Shown piece after piece: positions 8,764-60,135 of a stretch of DNA of 64,000 nucleotides. This DNA comes from Candidatus Magasanikiibacteriota bacterium (GTDB taxonomy: Bacteria; Patescibacteriota; Patescibacteriia; Magasanikbacterales; UBA922): positions 1,052-65,051 of the forward strand of contig JBAYUH010000002.1 in the NCBI GenBank assembly GCA_041675185.1, given 5' to 3'. Positions within the stretch are counted from its first letter, which is position 1; each line of letters starts with the position of its first letter. The position numbers and the translations under genes are program-made. The notes under the pieces are model-generated. The model was given only the letters and a program-made list of their open reading frames with translations, was not told the origin of the DNA and did no database searches.

Positions 8764-9531
8764 ATGAAAACACGAACAAGCATTTTATTATTTTCTTTTG
8801 TAGCAGGTATTACTTTATTAGGTGCTGGTTGTACCAACAACACTGATATTGTCATCCCTCCAGAAACAGCAACACAACCAACTGCTATTCAAAACAACCC
8901 AACACCACAACCAATAGTTAAACCATACATAAAAGTAATCTACCCAAATGGCAACGAAATATTTAACCCAGGACAAATCGTTACCATAAAATGGGATTCA
9001 GATGGCGTTGACAAAATCTATTTAAGTATGGTAAACGGAGGGAAAGAATTTGGACAAATCGCAGAAAACAGTATTGATGCCAGTCTCAAAGAATATACCT
9101 GGACAGTACCTGACAATTTCGCAGGAGTAGAGTCTGGATACAAAATATTTATTAGTAATAACTCTGTAAACGAAGATATTCGTGATTCTTCTAACGGAAC
9201 ATTTAGTATTAAATCTGCTCCAGTTGCTGTCCAACCATTCTTAAAATTAACAGCACCGACAGGCGATCAACAATTTAAAATTGGTCAGAAAGTAACTATC
9301 AGTTGGACATCCAGTGGTGTAAACAAAGTTTATCTTAGTCTTGTCAACGGCGGGAAAGAATTTGGACAGATCACAGAAAACGGTATTGATGCCTCACTTG
9401 GCAAATATGAATGGACTGTCCCAGACATGTCGGACTTGGGCACAACTGGTTACAAAATTTTCATAACCAACAATGAAGCAGTCAATGAATTACGCGACTC
9501 ATCTTCTGTATCATTTTCGATTGTTAAATAA
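8764..9531 (+). CDS. Secreted lipoprotein with two tandem ~108-aa Ser/Thr-rich 'GPI-anchored/Kre9_KNH-like' (PF10342-type) domains
   Basis: Signal peptide plus lipobox LGAGC. There are two internal repeats, each beginning KIYLSMVNGGKEFGQI / KVYLSLVNGGKEFGQI and about 60% identical. Confidence 0.55.
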   Translation: MKTRTSILLFSFVAGITLLGAGCTNNTDIVIPPETATQPTAIQNNPTPQPIVKPYIKVIYPNGNEIFNPGQIVTIKWDSDGVDKIYLSMVNGGKEFGQIAENSIDASLKEYTWTVPDNFAGVESGYKIFISNNSVNEDIRDSSNGTFSIKSAPVAVQPFLKLTAPTGDQQFKIGQKVTISWTSSGVNKVYLSLVNGGKEFGQITENGIDASLGKYEWTVPDMSDLGTTGYKIFITNNEAVNELRDSSSVSFSIVK

Positions 9532-9577: not shown

Positions 9578-10204
9578 ATGAAAAAAATAATTTCACTGGC
9601 ATCACTATCATTATTTCTCTTACTTGGTTTTGGATGTCAAACTCAAAAACAAGAACAAAATACTACTCTACCACCCGCAGTCGAGGAATTACAAACTCAA
9701 ACAGTTTCTGAAAATAAAAAACAAAATACTAGTGAAACTACTAATAATCCAACAAAAGTTGGAGTCACTCTTTACAAAGGTTTATGGTTTGATATTCAAT
9801 ATCCACAAAATTTCAATGCAACACCAACAACACAAACTGATGAAGCATATTTCTTGTCTCCAGAAGGAAATGTAGAATTTTTTGTCTATTCTCCACTCTG
9901 GTCTGGAACTCCAAAAAATTATTTGACAATGGCTTCAAACGAAGAGTTGGTAAGTGAAAAAATTGAAGAAACAAAAGCAAGTCAACAACCTAGACAATAT
10001 GGCGACAAAATCACTCGTTGGGTTACTATCAAAGCCAAAGATGGTTCATACTATCGTTCATTTGTATCTATCAAAGAACAAGTCGATACAGGAAGTGAAT
10101 TACATCATGTATTTGGTATTAAGTACAAGGACAATACTTCTTATCAAAAATACAGAGATGATTATATTACTTTCAAAGAATCTCTACATCAATATTCTGA
10201 TTAG
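9578..10204 (+). CDS. Hypothetical lipoprotein
   Basis: Signal peptide with lipobox GFGC. No known motif. Confidence 0.45.
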   Translation: MKKIISLASLSLFLLLGFGCQTQKQEQNTTLPPAVEELQTQTVSENKKQNTSETTNNPTKVGVTLYKGLWFDIQYPQNFNATPTTQTDEAYFLSPEGNVEFFVYSPLWSGTPKNYLTMASNEELVSEKIEETKASQQPRQYGDKITRWVTIKAKDGSYYRSFVSIKEQVDTGSELHHVFGIKYKDNTSYQKYRDDYITFKESLHQYSD

Positions 10205-10276: not shown

Positions 10277-11092
10277 TTAATGTTTAAACACTTTGACAAA
10301 CATCTTCCCCAAATATCCTACTACAAACAAACTAGTACCTGTCAAAATAATCATCGCACCAGATGGTAAATCAAGATAATAAGAAGCTATAAGACCAACA
10401 ATGACAATACTAATAGAAAACAAAATAGTCAAAAAAGTAAATATTTTGAAATTTCTAGCAAACATCTTGGCAATCGCACTTGGTGTGACAAGCAAAGCAC
10501 TGACCATAATAATACCTACGAGCTTGATACTAAGTACAATAGCAATAGCTGTAGATATATAAAGCAACAAATCATAAATCCAAGGATTAAGACCAGAGAG
10601 GTAGGCTCCACTTGGATCAAAAGTTACAAACAACATCTTGCGATAAAAAAAACTCAAAATGAAAAGAATGAAAATTCCTATAATCAATATAGACCACAAA
10701 TCCAAAGTATTGACTGTCAAAATATTTCCAAACAAATAACTAATAAGCTCTGGTTGATAACCTTGATAAAAATGAAGCAAGATAATACCAATAGCAATCC
10801 CTGTCGTAAACATAATAGCAATAGCCATGTCACTAGAAATATTTGTTTTCTTCTCAAGAAAATAAATTATAATAGCAATGACAACTGCCAAAACTACAGC
10901 TGTAGGAATTGGCGCCCAACCCAAAAGAACAGCAAGAGCAATTCCAGCCAAAGAAGCATGAGCGACACCATCACCAATGAAACTCATTTTTCTTGTTACT
11001 ACAAAAGTACCCAACCAGCCCAAAAGTACTGAAACAAAAGTACCAGCGAGTAAGGCTCTGATCATAAATGGATATTGTAAAAATTCTAGCAT
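10277..11092 (-). CDS. Metal (Zn/Mn) ABC transporter permease, ABC-3 family (ZnuB/MntB-like)
   Basis: A polytopic 271-aa protein with ABC-3 permease character, sitting in an operon with the ATPase, the substrate-binding protein and the Fur-family regulator. Confidence 0.7.
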   Translation of the reverse strand: MLEFLQYPFMIRALLAGTFVSVLLGWLGTFVVTRKMSFIGDGVAHASLAGIALAVLLGWAPIPTAVVLAVVIAIIIYFLEKKTNISSDMAIAIMFTTGIAIGIILLHFYQGYQPELISYLFGNILTVNTLDLWSILIIGIFILFILSFFYRKMLFVTFDPSGAYLSGLNPWIYDLLLYISTAIAIVLSIKLVGIIMVSALLVTPSAIAKMFARNFKIFTFLTILFSISIVIVGLIASYYLDLPSGAMIILTGTSLFVVGYLGKMFVKVFKH

Positions 11093-11103
11093 AGTTTGTT
11101 CAC

Positions 11104-11269
11104 AATCCCGAATCGAGAATACGACGAGGGATCTTTCTTAAAATAAAATTTACTTAATTAACAAAACTTATAAAATTCTTGAAAGACGTTTCCAACGTAC
11201 ACACAATCTTTCTCAAAAAAATATTCTTTTTAAGAAAGATCCCTCCCTGTCTTTCAGCAGTTCGGGATT
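11104..11269. repeat. Large imperfect inverted repeat (outer 9-bp arm aatcccgaa/ttcgggatt, inner 18-bp perfect arm gagggatctttcttaaaa/ttttaagaaagatccctc) flanking an ~84-bp AT-rich loop, between the ABC ATPase and permease genes
   Basis: Seen directly. It lies between the stop of 11276..11995 and the start of 10277..11092. Confidence 0.8.
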
Positions 11270-11275
11270 ACGAAA

Positions 11276-11995
11276 TTAATGAATATGTTCATGTGTATGA
11301 AACAAACCAGTTTGACTTCCATACAACTTTTGTAAAACTTCTGGTGTAATTACTACTTCTGGTGCACCAAAACACACCATTTCTTTGTTTAGACAAATTA
11401 CTGACTTGGTATATTTGTTGACAATATTTAATTCGTGCGAAACTATGACACAAGTCGTACCTCTAGTTTCATTTATTTTTTTTATCAAATCATAAATAGT
11501 TTTTTCACCAACAATATCTATACCTGTAGAAGGCTCATCAAAAATTAGAATTTCTTTTTCATGTAACAAAGCACGTGCAATCATTACGCGTTGAAATTGT
11601 CCACCAGACAAATAACCCAATTGTTTTTGTTCAATATCTTCTAATCCCACTTCTAGCAAAACTTCTATAATATTTTTTTCATCATGACCTTTTTTGCCAC
11701 ACTTTTCTAGACTCATAAATTCATGCACACTAATAGGAATAGTCCTATCAAATTCAAACTTCTGTGGTACATAACCAATTTTTTGTCTGACATCTTTTGG
11801 TTTTTTGCCATCTATAGTAATACTACCTTTTGTTGGACTAAGCACTCCAATAATATTTTGGAGTAAAGTAGTTTTACCACTGCCATTTGGTCCAATGATA
11901 GCTACAATATCACCTTTGGCAATTTCAAAAGAAACATTTTGCAGAGCTACAAAATCATTGAATTTATAAGTCAGATTTTCGACTTTGATTAGCAT
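11276..11995 (-). CDS. Metal ABC transporter ATP-binding protein (ZnuC/MntA-like)
   Basis: Walker A GPNGSGKTT, ABC signature LSGGQFQRV, and Walker B ILIFDEPSTGID. Confidence 0.8.
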   Translation of the reverse strand: MLIKVENLTYKFNDFVALQNVSFEIAKGDIVAIIGPNGSGKTTLLQNIIGVLSPTKGSITIDGKKPKDVRQKIGYVPQKFEFDRTIPISVHEFMSLEKCGKKGHDEKNIIEVLLEVGLEDIEQKQLGYLSGGQFQRVMIARALLHEKEILIFDEPSTGIDIVGEKTIYDLIKKINETRGTTCVIVSHELNIVNKYTKSVICLNKEMVCFGAPEVVITPEVLQKLYGSQTGLFHTHEHIH

Positions 11996-12057
11996 AATTT
12001 AGTTAAAAGTTTGTAAAATTATAAAGTTACTTATTCTGCCTATTCTGCTTAATTTGC

Positions 12058-13002
12058 TTATTCTGCTTTCAACAATTCATAAATATTGTTTACATTGAAA
12101 TCCATCATCTCAATATAGCTCATTCTACCATCTACTCCTCCCAAAGGATCCAAAGTTTTTATCTGTACACCCAAATCACTAGCCAAAGTTTTGATAGAAT
12201 CTTGTGATAATTGTGGTTCAACAAATAATGTTTTAATATTATCATCTTTTACAGTTTTTTGTAATTCTTTCAAATACTGGGCCGTTGGTTCTTGTCCAGG
12301 AAATGGTTCAAAAGTACCAACAATTTTCAAATCAAAATGGTCAGCAAAATATCCCCAAGCGTCATGAAATACTACAATGTTTTTATTAGTCAAACTACTC
12401 AATTTGTTTTTCCATTCCACATCTTTGGTTTGCAATTTTTCGATGAAATCTTGCGTATTAATATTATAGTAACCTTTGTTTTGTGGATTAAACTCGGATA
12501 ATTTGTTGCTAACAGCTTGTGCTATCAAAATGGCGTTGTCGAGATTAAGCCAATAGTGTGGGTCATAAGATGTAGTGTCAACTTGGTCTGGATCAGGAAT
12601 ATGATTAGGATCACTTTCATCCAGTCTTTGCAATGTAACATTTTGACTCAAATCATAAGTCTCTGCACCTGGAACTGAATCAGTAATGTCTTTTACCCAA
12701 TTATCAAGCGATTGCCCATTCACAAAAAATATTTTTGTACCTTGCAAACTTTTTATTTGAGAAGTCGAAACTTCAAAAGTGTGTGGACTGGCTCCTGGTG
12801 GCAAAATTACATTGACATCTACTTTGTCACCGCCAATTTCTTTTACCAAATCGTAAAGTGGAAAAATACTAGCAACTATTTTTAATTTTTGACTGTCTAC
12901 TTTATTTTGTGCAGATTCATTGGTCTGTATAACACTACAGCCAGACAAAAAGAAAGTTAGAGACAAAAATAAAATTATTATCAAAACTATTTTTTTATAC
13001 AT
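12058..13002 (-). CDS. Metal-binding periplasmic substrate-binding lipoprotein, TroA/ZnuA-like (cluster 9 SBP)
   Basis: Signal peptide with LSGC lipobox. Metal-ligand motifs SPHTFE and DPHYWL. Confidence 0.75.
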   Translation of the reverse strand: MYKKIVLIIILFLSLTFFLSGCSVIQTNESAQNKVDSQKLKIVASIFPLYDLVKEIGGDKVDVNVILPPGASPHTFEVSTSQIKSLQGTKIFFVNGQSLDNWVKDITDSVPGAETYDLSQNVTLQRLDESDPNHIPDPDQVDTTSYDPHYWLNLDNAILIAQAVSNKLSEFNPQNKGYYNINTQDFIEKLQTKDVEWKNKLSSLTNKNIVVFHDAWGYFADHFDLKIVGTFEPFPGQEPTAQYLKELQKTVKDDNIKTLFVEPQLSQDSIKTLASDLGVQIKTLDPLGGVDGRMSYIEMMDFNVNNIYELLKAE

Positions 13003-13006
13003 AAAT

Positions 13007-13384
13007 TTATTTACTACATTTCTTACAAAGTCCAGTTAATGTCAATTGATGATGGACATTAGTGAAATTTTTAAATTCATCAAACGAATAATTACAAGCG
13101 ACCTCTTCACTATAACCACACTTTTTACAAATCACATGGTGATGTGGTTCTTTGACCAAACAATACAATTTTTCATTATTCATATTTTCGATATTTACCA
13201 ATCCCAATTCTTCCAATAAATTCAAAACACGGTAAACAGAAACTTTGTCTACAGTTTTTATTTTTTGATGAATATCTTGAGCAGAAATAGCCTGATGGTT
13301 AGATGACAAAACTCCCAAAACTTTTTCTCGCGGTTTGGTCAATTTGTAACCATGTTGCTTAAGTTGTAGTAATATTTCTTTCAT
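13007..13384 (-). CDS. Fur-family metal-responsive transcriptional regulator (Zur/Fur-like)
   Basis: The 125-aa size fits, with a C-terminal HHHVICKKCG...C..C metal site, and it sits directly upstream of the metal ABC operon. Confidence 0.75.
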   Translation of the reverse strand: MKEILLQLKQHGYKLTKPREKVLGVLSSNHQAISAQDIHQKIKTVDKVSVYRVLNLLEELGLVNIENMNNEKLYCLVKEPHHHVICKKCGYSEEVACNYSFDEFKNFTNVHHQLTLTGLCKKCSK

Positions 13385-13482: not shown

Positions 13483-14745
13483 ATGAAAACAAAATCAATT
13501 TTTCTTTCTATACTATTTATCATTGCGTCACTTATGTTGCCACTAAAAAGTCTGGCAATCACGAGTGACTACGACTTAGTCACACCACCTCCTCCTGACT
13601 ATGGTCCCGATTCTTATGATCTCACTCTTGGTCAAGAAAATAATACTTCTACCAAAACAGAATTAAGCCCTGATGAAATTCCTCAAGCTGAATATAGTAC
13701 AGCCATAATACTTAGTATTGATACCAAAGGTAGTCACAAAATAGCTGGCAATTATACTGAAGATTATCAGACTTACACTGTCAAAATTTTGTCTGGCAAA
13801 GAAAAAAACAAAGAAGTGACTATAAAAAATTCTGGTGTACAAACAATCGACAAACTTGAAAATAGAAAAGTTGGTGAAAAAATAGTTGTTGTCAAAACTT
13901 ACTCTGTAGACGGTACTGTTACTTATGATTATGCTGACAATTATCGTATCCCAGCATTACTACTAATTCTAGGTATTTTTATTTTTTTCGTTTTATTACT
14001 TGGACGTCTAAAAGGATTTGGCTCTTTATTGGGTCTAATTTTTAGTATTTTAGTTTTGGGATTTTTTATTGTACCTCAGATTGCTCATGGTAAAAATCCT
14101 TTGACTGTTACAATTATCGGATCATTATTTATTGTTTGTATTTCTCTATACCTAGCTCACGGTTTCAACAAAAGAACAAATCTATCACTACTCAGTACTA
14201 TAATTACTTTAGTAATATCTATTATAATGGCCCAGATTTTTGTGCGCATGGCTAGTCTATTTGGTATGGGTTCAGAAGAAGCCTTCTTCTTACAAACTAC
14301 TCAATTTGGTGATATCAATTTACAAGGCTTATTGCTTGCTGGAATTATCATTGGTACACTAGGCGTCCTTGATGATATTACCACTGCTCAGACTGCTGTA
14401 GTTGGTGAACTTCGTTTTGCCAATCCAAATCTAAATAAAAATGAATTAAACAAGAGAGCTTTGGTAGTTGGCAAAGAACATATTTCTTCCCTCGTAAATA
14501 CTCTGGTCTTGGCTTACGCTGGTGCTTCCTTACCGCTGTTCCTCTTATTTTCTGCTTCACAAAATTCACCTATTTGGTACACAATCAATAGTCAATTTAT
14601 CTCTGAAGAATTAGTACGTACACTAGTTGGCAGTCTATCTCTTATTTTAGCTGTGCCCATCTCTACTTATATTGCTGCCCATTTTTTGAGCAAACAAGAC
14701 GTTACAAAAATGCATGAAGCAAATTATCATGGACACCACCATTAA
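13483..14745 (+). CDS. YibE/F-family integral membrane protein with N-terminal extracytoplasmic domain and His-rich C-terminus
   Basis: Signal/anchor, a ~150-aa soluble region, then multiple TM helices. Ends ...HEANYHGHHH. Confidence 0.5.
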   Translation: MKTKSIFLSILFIIASLMLPLKSLAITSDYDLVTPPPPDYGPDSYDLTLGQENNTSTKTELSPDEIPQAEYSTAIILSIDTKGSHKIAGNYTEDYQTYTVKILSGKEKNKEVTIKNSGVQTIDKLENRKVGEKIVVVKTYSVDGTVTYDYADNYRIPALLLILGIFIFFVLLLGRLKGFGSLLGLIFSILVLGFFIVPQIAHGKNPLTVTIIGSLFIVCISLYLAHGFNKRTNLSLLSTIITLVISIIMAQIFVRMASLFGMGSEEAFFLQTTQFGDINLQGLLLAGIIIGTLGVLDDITTAQTAVVGELRFANPNLNKNELNKRALVVGKEHISSLVNTLVLAYAGASLPLFLLFSASQNSPIWYTINSQFISEELVRTLVGSLSLILAVPISTYIAAHFLSKQDVTKMHEANYHGHHH

Positions 14746-17558: not shown

Positions 17559-18311
17559 TCAGCGAACAATGAGCTGTTTCAACTCCTTCTTGGAGTTGCA
17601 TACTACTACATTACTCAGACCACGTCCTTTGTTGTTCACTGCCTCAACATTGTCGAGGCTGATATCAAACCTACTCATCTTTGTTTCGGGAAAGTCAAAC
17701 CATCCGACTAACGCAAAAATGTGTCCAGTGTCTGGAATACTAATATGTACCTGGGCATCACTAACTGCCGGCTGGGGCAGATAGACAACACCCCCGACAC
17801 CTTGAGTGAGTGGTTGGACAAAACCACCGCTGACAAAAGGATGATTACCATCCATTGTGTCGTTGTCCAGAATTTCAAATGCGATAATGTTCGCATTATC
17901 ATCATCTTTGTGGAAAAAGCTATAGACCATATCCTCGTCATGATTCCCCTGAGGAACCTCGACGCGGACAGACACACTCTCCACAAATGTTTGTTGATGA
18001 TCGCAGGGTGTTACCATGAACTTCAGCAGAACAGCCTGCTCATCAATCAACACATTGTCGTTCTCTCGAGGGATAATACTAACCACAAAATCCTTACCAG
18101 TACTCTGACAGAGGTGTTTTACCTCCTCATAAGAAACTGGACAATTGATGGTGTTAACGATTTCAACAGAATGTTGCGGGACAGTCTGTTGATGATTGGT
18201 TGAAGTGGTGTTTCCATCATCCTCGCATCCAAGGGCGAAGAAAGAAACAAGAAAAGCGGCAAAAAAACGTGACAACATAAAGCACTCTTTTCCTCTTGAA
18301 GTGACTTTCAA
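17559..18311 (-). CDS. Hypothetical lipoprotein encoded in a GC-rich, compositionally atypical segment
   Basis: Signal peptide plus lipobox FALGC. GC content and codon usage (GAC, CTC, GGC codons) differ from the surrounding genes. Both strands are open here, as expected for higher-GC DNA. Confidence 0.5.
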   Translation of the reverse strand: MKVTSRGKECFMLSRFFAAFLVSFFALGCEDDGNTTSTNHQQTVPQHSVEIVNTINCPVSYEEVKHLCQSTGKDFVVSIIPRENDNVLIDEQAVLLKFMVTPCDHQQTFVESVSVRVEVPQGNHDEDMVYSFFHKDDDNANIIAFEILDNDTMDGNHPFVSGGFVQPLTQGVGGVVYLPQPAVSDAQVHISIPDTGHIFALVGWFDFPETKMSRFDISLDNVEAVNNKGRGLSNVVVCNSKKELKQLIVR

Positions 18312-18471
18312 ACAACGAAGTTACCCAAAACATTGTTAGTGTCTTAGATAACGCAAAATTATAGAATAAAATTGTCATTTTGTCAATATGTAAAATTAGT
18401 TAAACATGTGTACAAAAAAGACTCCCAATAGGAGCCATATTCTTGTATATTATTCAATTATCCAAAATTTA

Positions 18472-19350
18472 TCAAACAAAAAACAACTCCCCATGAAAAT
18501 CTTTGGAAACATCTACATTATTATCAGCATACAAAATTACATATTGAAAACTATATACTTCCAACAAAATTTCTTTGTCCACCATATATAGACAAGTTGC
18601 CAAAGCATCAGCCAACATCGCACTATCAGCTATTACCCACGTTGCCAAAACATCTTTTGAAGATTCCAAAGTTTTTGGATTTATTATGTGATTGAATTTC
18701 CCCCATTTACGACGACTACCAGAAGAAGCGCAGATACTTTGATTACAAATCTCAGCCACACCAATCACTTGTGAAAAATCATTAGGATTTTCCAAACCCA
18801 CACGCATTTTTTCTTGTCCATTATTTTGATAAAAAATATCTCCACCAGCATCCACACAAAAATAATTTATATTAGAATCAATCAACATCTGACTCACAAT
18901 ATCTATTATATATCCTTTACCACAAGCACCAAAATCCAAAACTGTTTTCTGTTTTACAGTCAAATTTGGAAAATCATAATCCAACACATCTTCCCAAGGT
19001 AGTGGCTTTGTTATAATTTCTTTTTGTTTTAGAGAATATTTAGCATCATAACCAGCGTCCACCAAAGTCTTACCAATAAGTGGTGTGAAGACACCTTGAG
19101 TCAAGGCATACAAATCATAGTACAAATCAAACAACGGCTTGGCATCATCTGACAAAACATAATTTCCAGGTTTACTAACCATTTTTGAAAGCCAAGAATC
19201 TTCACGAAAACGAGAATAAGTTTGTTCAAATTTTTCTATTCTATTTTTTATTTTCGTAAAAAAATTCGTCTGATCCAAGACAGACGAATCCAAAATGTCA
19301 ATTTGCCAATGAGTACCAATGGCTTCAAATTGAATACTATTTTTAGTCAT
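18472..19350 (-). CDS. apbE: ApbE-family FAD:protein FMN transferase (flavin transferase)
   Basis: ApbE-like motifs FEAIGTHWQIDI, DFGACGKGY and ADALAT. No N-terminal signal peptide is apparent. Confidence 0.7.
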   Translation of the reverse strand: MTKNSIQFEAIGTHWQIDILDSSVLDQTNFFTKIKNRIEKFEQTYSRFREDSWLSKMVSKPGNYVLSDDAKPLFDLYYDLYALTQGVFTPLIGKTLVDAGYDAKYSLKQKEIITKPLPWEDVLDYDFPNLTVKQKTVLDFGACGKGYIIDIVSQMLIDSNINYFCVDAGGDIFYQNNGQEKMRVGLENPNDFSQVIGVAEICNQSICASSGSRRKWGKFNHIINPKTLESSKDVLATWVIADSAMLADALATCLYMVDKEILLEVYSFQYVILYADNNVDVSKDFHGELFFV

Positions 19351-19355
19351 ATATA

Positions 19356-19931
19356 TTATAAAGAAGCTTGTGATTTTATTATAGAAACAGCATTATTGAA
19401 ACCTTGAGTAGTCAAAGAAGCTCCAGCAACTCTATTTAAATTTAGAGAACTGATGTCTTTACCCACAACTTGTGATTTTAAATTATCAGAAAACATATTT
19501 TGATAAGCAAGGGCAGTTCTGTTATTAGACATAGTCTGAACATTAACATCTGTAACAATATCATTTTGCAATGTAAGACTTATTCCTATAGTTTCTTGAC
19601 CACTAGGAGCACGGTATTGCCCTGTAGTAGAATAACTTCCATCTTTATATTGATTCATCATACTACCATTACCACCCATCATACCAGAACCAGAAGTACC
19701 TGCACTATTATTTGAAACAGTGGTAGGCGCTACTTGTTCACTAGTATTAGAATTTCCCATCACACTAGGATCAATATTTTGAGTAATTGGAATTTGTGAG
19801 ACACTATTATTTGAATCAATAGGTGTCTGATTAGTGGTACTAGTAACTCCACAACCACTAGCCAAAAAAGCCAAAGTAAGTACAGCAACTAATACTAACA
19901 AATTTGGTAAATTACTTATCTGTTTTTTCAT
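19356..19931 (-). CDS. FMN-binding-domain lipoprotein (probable ApbE flavinylation substrate)
   Basis: Lipobox LASGC and a low-complexity S/T/N/G linker. The C-terminal ~90 aa (YKDGSYSTTGQY...VTDVNVQ...RVAGASLTTQGFNNAV) fit the FMN_bind consensus, with S in place of the usual flavinylated T. Confidence 0.5.
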   Translation of the reverse strand: MKKQISNLPNLLVLVAVLTLAFLASGCGVTSTTNQTPIDSNNSVSQIPITQNIDPSVMGNSNTSEQVAPTTVSNNSAGTSGSGMMGGNGSMMNQYKDGSYSTTGQYRAPSGQETIGISLTLQNDIVTDVNVQTMSNNRTALAYQNMFSDNLKSQVVGKDISSLNLNRVAGASLTTQGFNNAVSIIKSQASL

Positions 19932-20135
19932 ATAAAAAAATTAAAATTAAGACCGAACTATTATAACATACTTCGACATAACAGCCTATACTGCAATATG
20001 AACATTAAATTAAATAGTATACTAATTCTATATAATATACTACGCAAATAATAAAACTTTTATTTCAAACAAAGCTTTTTGGCTTAATCTAAAACAAAAA
20101 AACAGAACCTTCCAGCTCTGTCTTTGATAATTTTA

Positions 20136-59415: not shown

Positions 59416-60135
59416 TTACTTCAAAAATCCATCTACTAATTGCCCCACAAAATAACCAATCAAAGCAGCTAATGAAGCAAGAGCTGTCATCTCTAATCCA
59501 GCTTTCCACCATTTTCTCTTGGTAAATCTTGTGGTGAAAATACCCAAAACAAACAAACCAATCAAAGTAAAAACAATGGAAATAGGAACAGCATCATGAA
59601 TAGGAAAAAGGACATAAGGTATAAGAGGTATTGATCCACCAACCACATAAGAAGCAAACATTACCCAACCTTTTTTTATCGGATTATCAGTATTGTCTGT
59701 AATAATATCCAATTCACGATAAGCCATTTCTTTTAGAAAAAGATGTTTGTCTTTGGAGGCTATCAAAGCCATATCTTTGGCCATTTTTTTTGGCCAACCA
59801 TCACCTACATACATTTCAAACAATTCTTCTTTTTCATCTTCTGGATACTTTTGTAGTTCTTCTCTTTCTTCGTAGAGTTTTCTATCATCAGTGTCTTTTT
59901 CAGATTTGTTGGATAAATAAGAACCTACTGCCATTGATATTGATTCAACAGAAATAACCACAAAACCTGAAAGCAAAGTAGTAAATTGACTATTGGTCGC
60001 TGTTGCAATACCAGTCACAGCTCCAAGGGTAGAGACCATACCATCTTCCAAACCAAAAACTATTTCTCGCAAAAGTGAAGGAGAAATTTTACTTTGGATA
60101 TGATGAATATATTCGTTGTTGTGAGGAATTGTCAT
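59416..60135 (-). CDS. VIT1/CCC1-family Fe/Mn transporter
   Basis: N-terminal helical domain with an E-rich metal-binding region, LREIVFGLEDGMVSTLGAVTGIA matching the VIT family, and a C-terminal TM bundle. Confidence 0.65.
   Translation of the reverse strand: MTIPHNNEYIHHIQSKISPSLLREIVFGLEDGMVSTLGAVTGIATATNSQFTTLLSGFVVISVESISMAVGSYLSNKSEKDTDDRKLYEEREELQKYPEDEKEELFEMYVGDGWPKKMAKDMALIASKDKHLFLKEMAYRELDIITDNTDNPIKKGWVMFASYVVGGSIPLIPYVLFPIHDAVPISIVFTLIGLFVLGIFTTRFTKRKWWKAGLEMTALASLAALIGYFVGQLVDGFLK

Follow-up and report, generated by a model that had tools for sequence, protein, structure and literature searches.

How can a flavin transferase that carries no export signal modify a lipoprotein that is displayed outside the cytoplasm? 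The question is raised by two adjacent genes in a stretch of DNA from a Candidatus Magasanikiibacteriota bacterium (assembly GCA_041675185.1, contig JBAYUH010000002.1, positions 1,052 to 65,051), which was analysed over its whole length of 64 kb and is referred to below as the window. One gene encodes a membrane-tethered lipoprotein with a divergent FMN_bind domain and the other an ApbE-type transferase, which moves flavin mononucleotide (FMN) from flavin adenine dinucleotide (FAD) to proteins. The pair is the core of a published Nqr/Rnf-like flavinylation system of Actinobacteria and of the candidate phyla radiation (CPR). The reading that we favour, with a probability of roughly 0.55, is that of a bicistronic, pair-only Nqr/Rnf-like core in which ApbE would load FMN onto the tethered carrier, most likely in the cytoplasm and before export. 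We have good confidence that the pair combines a dedicated transferase with a tethered FMN carrier and forms the core of an outward electron-transfer module, and less confidence that flavinylation takes place on the cytoplasmic side of the membrane.

The two genes and the likely boundaries of their transcription unit are as follows.

19356..19931, minus strand: gene for the NqrC/RnfG-like (divergent FMN_bind) membrane-tethered lipoprotein, 191 amino acids (aa), the presumed flavinylation substrate (open reading frame)
18472..19350, minus strand: apbE, gene for the 292-aa FAD:protein FMN transferase, with neither signal peptide nor membrane segment (open reading frame, PF02424)
18420..18436, minus strand: terminator-like hairpin and T-run just 3′ of the apbE stop, likely the 3′ end of the bicistronic unit (consensus scan only)
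20098..20125, minus strand: terminator-like hairpin 3′ of the upstream DEAD-box helicase gene, likely the 5′ boundary of the unit (consensus scan only)

The TAA stop of the lipoprotein gene is separated from the ATG of apbE by 5 nucleotides (nt; TATAT), and the two genes form a bicistronic operon. This order and spacing had been given by the original prediction, made from the DNA letters before the present analysis, and both open reading frames lie exactly where it had placed them on the minus strand. The hairpin that follows apbE, found by consensus scan only, has a stem of 7 base pairs, four of them G-C, and the tail TTTTTTGT. Rfam and tRNA scans of the window returned two tRNAs only, and neither lies near the pair.

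The identity of the enzyme is straightforward. The second open reading frame is, by its sequence, an unambiguous ApbE with intact catalytic motifs, and FMN transfer to its partner is predicted. PF02424 matches it at 134.9 bits (cut-off 25.6), residues 12-265 aligning with profile positions 2-254 of 266, and its relatives in the PDB are TM1553 and the ApbE proteins of Vibrio cholerae, Escherichia coli and Treponema pallidum. The catalytic His of the V. cholerae enzyme (His257; RYSHIID in 6nxi) has its counterpart in H221, S209/S210 are conserved, and the DFGAxGKGY motif (31 members) is invariant in the clade together with D248/T252. The roles of the catalytic His, of its Ser/Asp partners and of the metal/FAD motifs are those described in PMC12052999.

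The absence of an export signal from this enzyme is equally clear. An N-terminal lipoprotein signal is typical, though not defining, of characterised ApbE proteins, and none is present here: the ApbE domain starts at residue 12, which corresponds to profile position 2, and no ATG, GTG or TTG occurs between the apbE ATG and an in-frame stop 15 codons upstream, so that no signal peptide can be added. ApbE was originally predicted to be signal-less, and that description holds, no alternative start being available upstream in frame. The same is true of its relatives. The 120 closest homologues (51-93% identity) are 283-311 aa long, with 3-25 residues ahead of the conserved FEAIGTHWQIDI strand, and a hydrophobic N-terminus is absent from all of them, the highest Kyte-Doolittle mean over 15 residues being 1.37. 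A scan of the genome collection found at least 561 stretches that encode a relative, and the counts of related loci given in this text refer to the best 80 species-level loci; the longest possible apbE open reading frames at these 80 loci likewise include none with a hydrophobic N-terminus (maximum 1.49). A HMMER search of 50%-identity cluster representatives returned at least 296 ApbE clusters at E<=1e-30, and a hydrophobic N-terminus was found in none of the best 150 of the 296 representatives, which reach down to 32% identity and are ~280-330 aa long. In total, ~350 ApbE relatives were examined, and a signal, an anchor or a hydrophobic N-terminus was found in none. The missing signal is a clade-wide property and not an artefact of start-codon choice.

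The partner protein has the opposite character. An NCBI protein entry under the name Candidatus Magasanikbacteria is 100% identical to the 191-aa sequence. Four parts of it can be told apart.

19851..19931, minus strand: signal peptide with lipobox, residues 1-27, LASG followed by C, with Cys27 at 19853..19851 (read from the sequence)
19650..19850, minus strand: low-complexity tether rich in S, T, N and G, residues 28-94 (confidence of the predicted structure, conservation)
19359..19649, minus strand: globular FMN_bind-like domain, residues 95-191, with three strands and a helix, then the acceptor loop and the helix at the C-terminus
19416..19418, minus strand: codon of Ser172, the predicted FMN acceptor in N-R-V-A-G-A-S-L-T (alignment, invariance)

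The N-terminus, MKKQISNLPNLLVLVAVLTLAFLASGC, combines a charged n-region, a hydrophobic core of 15 residues and the lipobox-type Cys27, the last by pattern match only. The predicted local distance difference test score (pLDDT) of the predicted structure stays below 50 over residues 26-88, and the tether stretch is weakly conserved and varies in length between relatives. A strong N-terminal hydrophobic segment is present in 69/76 substrate relatives: in ~20 it comes with a lipobox-like Cys, and in the others it is a signal anchor. A twin-arginine motif occurs in 0/76 of the substrate N-termini. The charge around the N-terminal helix is asymmetric, with a net +1.1 on the N-flank versus -0.6 on the C-flank, and the N-flank is the richer in K+R in 42 versus 12 cases, which points to an N-in/C-out orientation. 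The partner is thereby predicted to be an exported, membrane-tethered protein of the FMN_bind type. With the enzyme predicted inside and the substrate domain predicted outside, the topological puzzle that the original prediction had pointed out is real, and it is found throughout the system rather than at this locus only.

The assignment of the C-terminal domain draws on the family and on the fold. Its fold matches are FMN-binding domains, RnfG and NqrC, and its three-stranded sheet is accompanied by helices, the last of which opens with the acceptor. Family profiles place VAGASLT/VSGSSLT on VSGATYT of 8p2a, with Ser172 at the position of the acceptor Thr, a marginal alignment (E 0.15). Among 75 family members from related loci, PF04205 (FMN_bind) is matched at E<=0.01 by 30, at best with 4.1e-5, and no other Pfam family recurs among these 75; close homologues of the 191-aa protein carry a precomputed Pfam domain in 0/16 cases. 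From this family-level and fold-level evidence we conclude that the domain is a divergent branch of the NqrC/RnfG-type FMN_bind family.

The acceptor residue itself is no anomaly. In the lipoprotein, AGASLTT occupies residues 169-175, and the original prediction had taken its Ser for a departure from the canonical motif. The flavinylation motif has been published as [S/T]GA[S/T] (PMC8238504) and also as D-x-x-[S/T]-G-A-[S/T], with Ser acceptors confirmed experimentally (PMC12052999); Ser thus lies within the published motif, and the supposed departure falls away. ApbE does prefer Thr, flavinylation being 10-55% lower on Ser (PMC12052999). The motif of the window protein, A-G-A-S, opens on a non-canonical Ala where the family consensus is VSGSSLT, and it is counted here as an instance of [S/T]GA[S/T]. 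What sets the family apart is that Ser is the sole residue seen at the acceptor position (75/75 family members), and in 68/68 sequences that match a motif search this Ser lies 18-23 residues from the C-terminus.

The pairing of the two genes is conserved. In 76/80 loci apbE is immediately preceded by an FMN_bind-like gene of the same orientation, two of the four exceptions ending at a contig edge, and the two genes mostly overlap or are less than 20 nt apart. The record titles name Magasanik-, Uhr-, Nomura- and Saccharibacteria, Gracilibacteria, Peribacteria, WWE3 and Paceibacterota. Many third-party records of metagenome-assembled genomes (L011, L012, L015-L017, L021, L046, L062 and others) bear the title uncultured Gammaproteobacteria, Pseudomonadales, Kapaibacterium or Limnocylindrales; such non-CPR titles on a CPR-type module may be placeholders or binning errors.

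In 33/80 loci a fusion protein of ~500 aa is encoded directly downstream of the pair; its N-terminal half is polytopic, and its C-terminus carries an NAD_binding_1 domain. It has more than 6000 homologues, many of which combine PF03116 (NQR2_RnfD_RnfE) with PF00175; among the best 120 of these, none has a Magasanikbacteria name. In another 18/80 loci the pair adjoins a DoxX-family membrane protein of 125-160 aa with roughly four helices (PF07681, 32-34 bits against a cut-off of 23.6), which never occurs alongside the fusion and may be an alternative membrane partner. The other 29/80 loci hold the pair only, among heterogeneous neighbours. They include all four loci titled Magasanikbacteria/Magasanikiibacteriota, one of which (L010) has a weak DoxX-like open reading frame upstream; the window and the syntenic metagenome loci L006 and L007 are also pair-only. 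The same arrangement of a signal-less ApbE with an exported partner extends to a complete 3.7-Mb chromosome with a guanine-plus-cytosine (GC) content of 74%, CP029049.1 (GCA_003074035.1), which carries a representative of the signal-less ApbE clade within a three-gene cluster. There the lipoprotein has an LAAC lipobox, a VAGSSLT motif and a family-profile E of 2.7e-34, ApbE has 328 aa and lacks a hydrophobic N-terminus, and the fusion that follows has 573 aa. The combination of a cytoplasmic ApbE with an exported substrate hence appears to be a property of the whole Nqr/Rnf-like system. Examples of the two kinds of neighbourhood are as follows.

L019:4940-5398: DoxX-family membrane protein adjoining the pair
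L022:5015-5500: DoxX-family membrane protein adjoining the pair
L068:3375-3800: DoxX-family membrane protein adjoining the pair
L088:4439-7719: three-gene cluster of CP029049.1, comprising the FMN_bind-like lipoprotein, ApbE and the NqrB/RnfD-FNR fusion

The kind of system is already known. NQR/RNF-like clusters of Actinobacteria and CPR were described by Meheust et al. 2021, eLife (PMC8238504), and Huang et al. 2024, mSystems, modelled such a system as a complex of two subunits, the one in the membrane being without the flavinylation site that NqrB/RnfD carry (PMC11334425). The loci described here share with this Nqr/Rnf-like system an extracytosolic NqrC/RnfG-like subunit encoded beside apbE and, in the 33 loci mentioned above and in CP029049.1, a fusion directly downstream; the window differs in that it has the pair only, with no fusion within 64 kb. 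The original prediction had described a minimal extracytosolic flavoprotein module. The part of this description that concerns the pair is borne out by its conservation; its novelty as a free-standing module is not, since the pair is the core of the published system. NqrC/RnfG of the Vibrio Na+-NQR and RNF complexes resemble the window protein in fold class, in an acceptor near the C-terminus, in an N-terminal anchor, in an outward domain and in being served by the same transferase family. Canonically, however, FMN is attached to a Thr in NqrC/RnfG systems, by an ApbE that is itself exported as a lipoprotein (PMC12052999), whereas the family of the window protein has Ser without exception and an ApbE with no signal. 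The other Nqr and Rnf subunits (A, D, E, F or RnfABCE) are not present here.

How the flavin could come to sit on the outer face can then be considered. Lacking both a signal peptide and any membrane segment, the ApbE of this clade is most likely cytoplasmic and would draw on cytoplasmic FAD. It would act on the acceptor Ser as long as this part of the lipoprotein has not yet crossed the membrane, transferring FMN from FAD to Ser172 via a phosphoester bond. With the Ser ~19 residues from the C-terminus, it belongs to the part of the chain that emerges from the ribosome, and reaches the translocon, after all the rest, and Sec would afterwards carry this tail together with its FMN. Since ApbE needs no more than a seven-residue linear motif and accepts Ser as well (PMC12052999), an unfolded chain is a feasible substrate. 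Once exported, the lipid-anchored NqrC/RnfG-like protein would serve as the extracytoplasmic FMN carrier, and in the full system its flavin would receive electrons from the cytoplasm through a fusion protein in which an NAD(P)H-binding domain is joined to a membrane domain of the NqrB/RnfD type. The side of the membrane on which FMN is attached, the electron donor and the electron acceptor are all points that we infer. It is possible, and we put it forward tentatively, that the scheme holds for the Nqr/Rnf-like systems of Patescibacteria and Actinobacteria at large, with a soluble ApbE that flavinylates the Ser before export, a flavin-bearing chain threaded through the translocon and no need for FAD export.

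Several observations weigh against cytoplasmic loading of a flavin carrier in this locus. PF04205 scores 17.0 bits on the whole lipoprotein and 19.6 bits on its C-terminal 98 residues, against a cut-off of 22. The domain is thus below the Pfam gathering score, and a strict profile search would not call it FMN_bind; the match to FMN_bind proposed in the original prediction fails in this respect and stands at the level of the family and of the fold matches, which include NqrC/RnfG. A Foldseek search against the PDB is ambiguous, IscU-like folds being ranked equal to FMN_bind. A covalent FMN on Ser172 is, as for the whole family, predicted rather than observed. No homologue of the NqrB/RnfD-NAD_binding_1 fusion is encoded by the open reading frames of at least 60 aa in the window, nor does the window hold a DoxX homologue; the membrane partner of the pair, if there is one, lies outside the 64 kb. 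In Salmonella, an ApbE confined to the cytoplasm failed to stand in for the periplasmic ApbE (PMC12052999), which indicates that flavinylation before export is not generally workable in a system built for a periplasmic ApbE. Finally, a literature search for the passage of an FMN-bearing chain through SecYEG, or for flavinylation before export, returned nothing relevant.

The explanation that survives best next to loading in the cytoplasm is that ApbE reaches the outer face without an N-terminal signal, by leaderless secretion, by co-export with a partner or by lysis in dense episymbiont communities, and flavinylates the folded lipoprotein there. We consider this unlikely. The lipoprotein substrate is clearly exported, and according to PMC12052999 and PMC9973259 the characterised ApbE enzymes that serve exported substrates all act outside the cytoplasm. 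One known case is FmnB/PplA of Listeria monocytogenes, a monoderm-type cell in which an FMN_bind lipoprotein is flavinylated by an ApbE-type enzyme for extracytosolic electron transfer (PMC9973259); FmnB, however, acts outside the cytosol and needs an energy-coupling factor (ECF) transporter for extracytosolic flavin, whereas the ApbE of the window is predicted to be cytoplasmic. An extracellular ApbE would need exported FAD, yet neither FAD-export genes nor an ECF transporter were seen adjoining the pair in the related loci, and a signal, anchor or hydrophobic segment is missing from all of the ~350 relatives. Export of a folded, already flavinylated substrate by the twin-arginine translocation (Tat) route was considered as well and rejected on the 0/76 count of twin-arginine motifs; the same count speaks against Tat hitch-hiking by ApbE.

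Somewhat less probable still is a second possibility, in which the true substrate of ApbE is cytoplasmic or faces the cytoplasm and the lipoprotein binds flavin non-covalently or is no flavoprotein at all. Cytosolic ApbE enzymes with cytosolic substrates are documented, and the sub-threshold match to FMN_bind would fit. In Klebsiella pneumoniae, a cytoplasmic ApbE resembles that of the window in having no signal peptide and in using cytoplasmic FAD, but its substrate, a soluble fumarate reductase, is itself cytoplasmic, so that no conflict arises, whereas here the substrate is exported (PMC12052999). A cytoplasmic target would also leave the near-universal and tightly spaced pairing unaccounted for, together with the invariance of a Ser that stands at the structurally correct place in an [S/A]G[S/A]S-L-T motif. 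The NqrB/RnfD-like partner has been reported to lack a flavinylation site (PMC11334425), and no other recurrent neighbour bearing a flavinylation motif was found in the related loci.

It is improbable, in turn, that the ApbE homologue is not a transferase but an FAD pyrophosphatase of the Ftp class or a flavin chaperone acting as a source of FMN. The ApbE/Ftp family does hold both activities, and the class is marked by one residue: an aromatic side chain at the position of E. coli Tyr60 denotes the FAD-binding transferases, and its replacement by Asn or Ala yields a hydrolase (PMC4767422). In the alignment, the clade-invariant F48 pairs with the STYR tyrosine of the V. cholerae enzyme, which corresponds to this position, and would put the enzyme of the window in the transferase class. 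Both the conservation of the catalytic His and the invariance of the acceptor Ser in the partner argue in the same direction.

The membrane topology of NqrC was historically disputed. An orientation of the FMN_bind-like domain towards the cytoplasm, which would do away with the topological conflict and for which it may be said that the majority of the family carries one N-terminal helix and no cleavable signal, is nevertheless the least probable explanation of all, given the lipobox-type signals of the window protein and ~20 relatives, which imply export, the positive-inside bias in favour of N-in/C-out, a long S/T-rich tether typical of surface proteins and the solved Nqr and Rnf structures, in which the homologous domain lies outside (PMC11334425).

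The gene that follows apbE had also been suggested as a member of the module. It has the following features.

17559..18311, minus strand: gene for a predicted GC-rich lipoprotein of 250 aa, with a GC content of 0.44 versus 0.33 for the window overall
18358..18386, minus strand: perfect TTGACA-17-TATAAT promoter-like site before this gene

As a third component of the module this lipoprotein is ruled out by the intervening terminator-like hairpin, by its own promoter-like site and by the lack of homologues in related loci, and the suggestion has to be dropped: the gene is a separate transcription unit, and syntenic relatives carry a different gene, of the DNA_binding_1 (methyltransferase) type, at its position. 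It matches no Pfam family, and among the fetched related loci a homologue was found only in L001, a 3.9-kb contig with the same genes. The gene may be a recent acquisition.

Other genes of the window touch on metals or on the cell surface. A VIT1-family iron transporter gene lies at 59416-60135 on the minus strand (PF01988, 196 bits), ~40 kb from the pair. VIT1 genes have been noted within six NQR/RNF-like clusters by Meheust et al. (PMC8238504); at such a distance from the pair, the VIT1 gene of the window is at most a faint pointer to iron. A cluster that resembles Fur-regulated metal uptake, adjoining a YibE/F membrane protein, occupies 10277-13384 (minus strand) and 13483-14745 (plus strand). 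Its members would be a Fur-like regulator, a ZnuA-type lipoprotein, an ATP-binding cassette (ABC) ATPase and an ABC-3 permease, as judged from gene order and open reading frame sizes in L006 and L007, YibE/F being the sole member of this region that was tested directly in the window. Two further predicted lipoproteins are encoded on the plus strand at 8764-9531 and 9578-10204, with the lipoboxes AGC and FGC, respectively; the former has Kre9/KNH-like and bacterial Ig domains and the latter no Pfam match.

What is added to the published picture concerns the enzyme, the acceptor and the architecture. No mention of a clade-wide signal-less ApbE, of an invariant Ser, or of pair-only and DoxX-linked architectures was found in PMC8238504, PMC11334425 and PMC12052999, and no discussion of DoxX in place of the fusion was found in the first two, which describe the system. 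Meheust et al. filtered out proteins without predicted signal peptides and relied on FMN_bind domains detected by Pfam, and they reported flavinylation to be "strikingly underrepresented" in CPR (PMC8238504). As a signal-less enzyme and a sub-threshold substrate fail both of these filters, the scarcity of flavinylation in CPR may be partly a detection effect.

ApbE-dependent flavinylation is currently seen as an extracytosolic process that needs both an exported enzyme and exported FAD. A large clade of signal-less ApbE proteins locked in an operon with an exported substrate runs counter to this picture, and the strain of CP029049.1, if it is in culture, makes the question experimentally testable. 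If ApbE does act before export, the route would be distinct from the periplasmic ApbE paradigm; it would change how the assembly of extracytosolic flavoproteins is understood in bacteria with small genomes, and it would touch on the range of cargo that Sec can carry.

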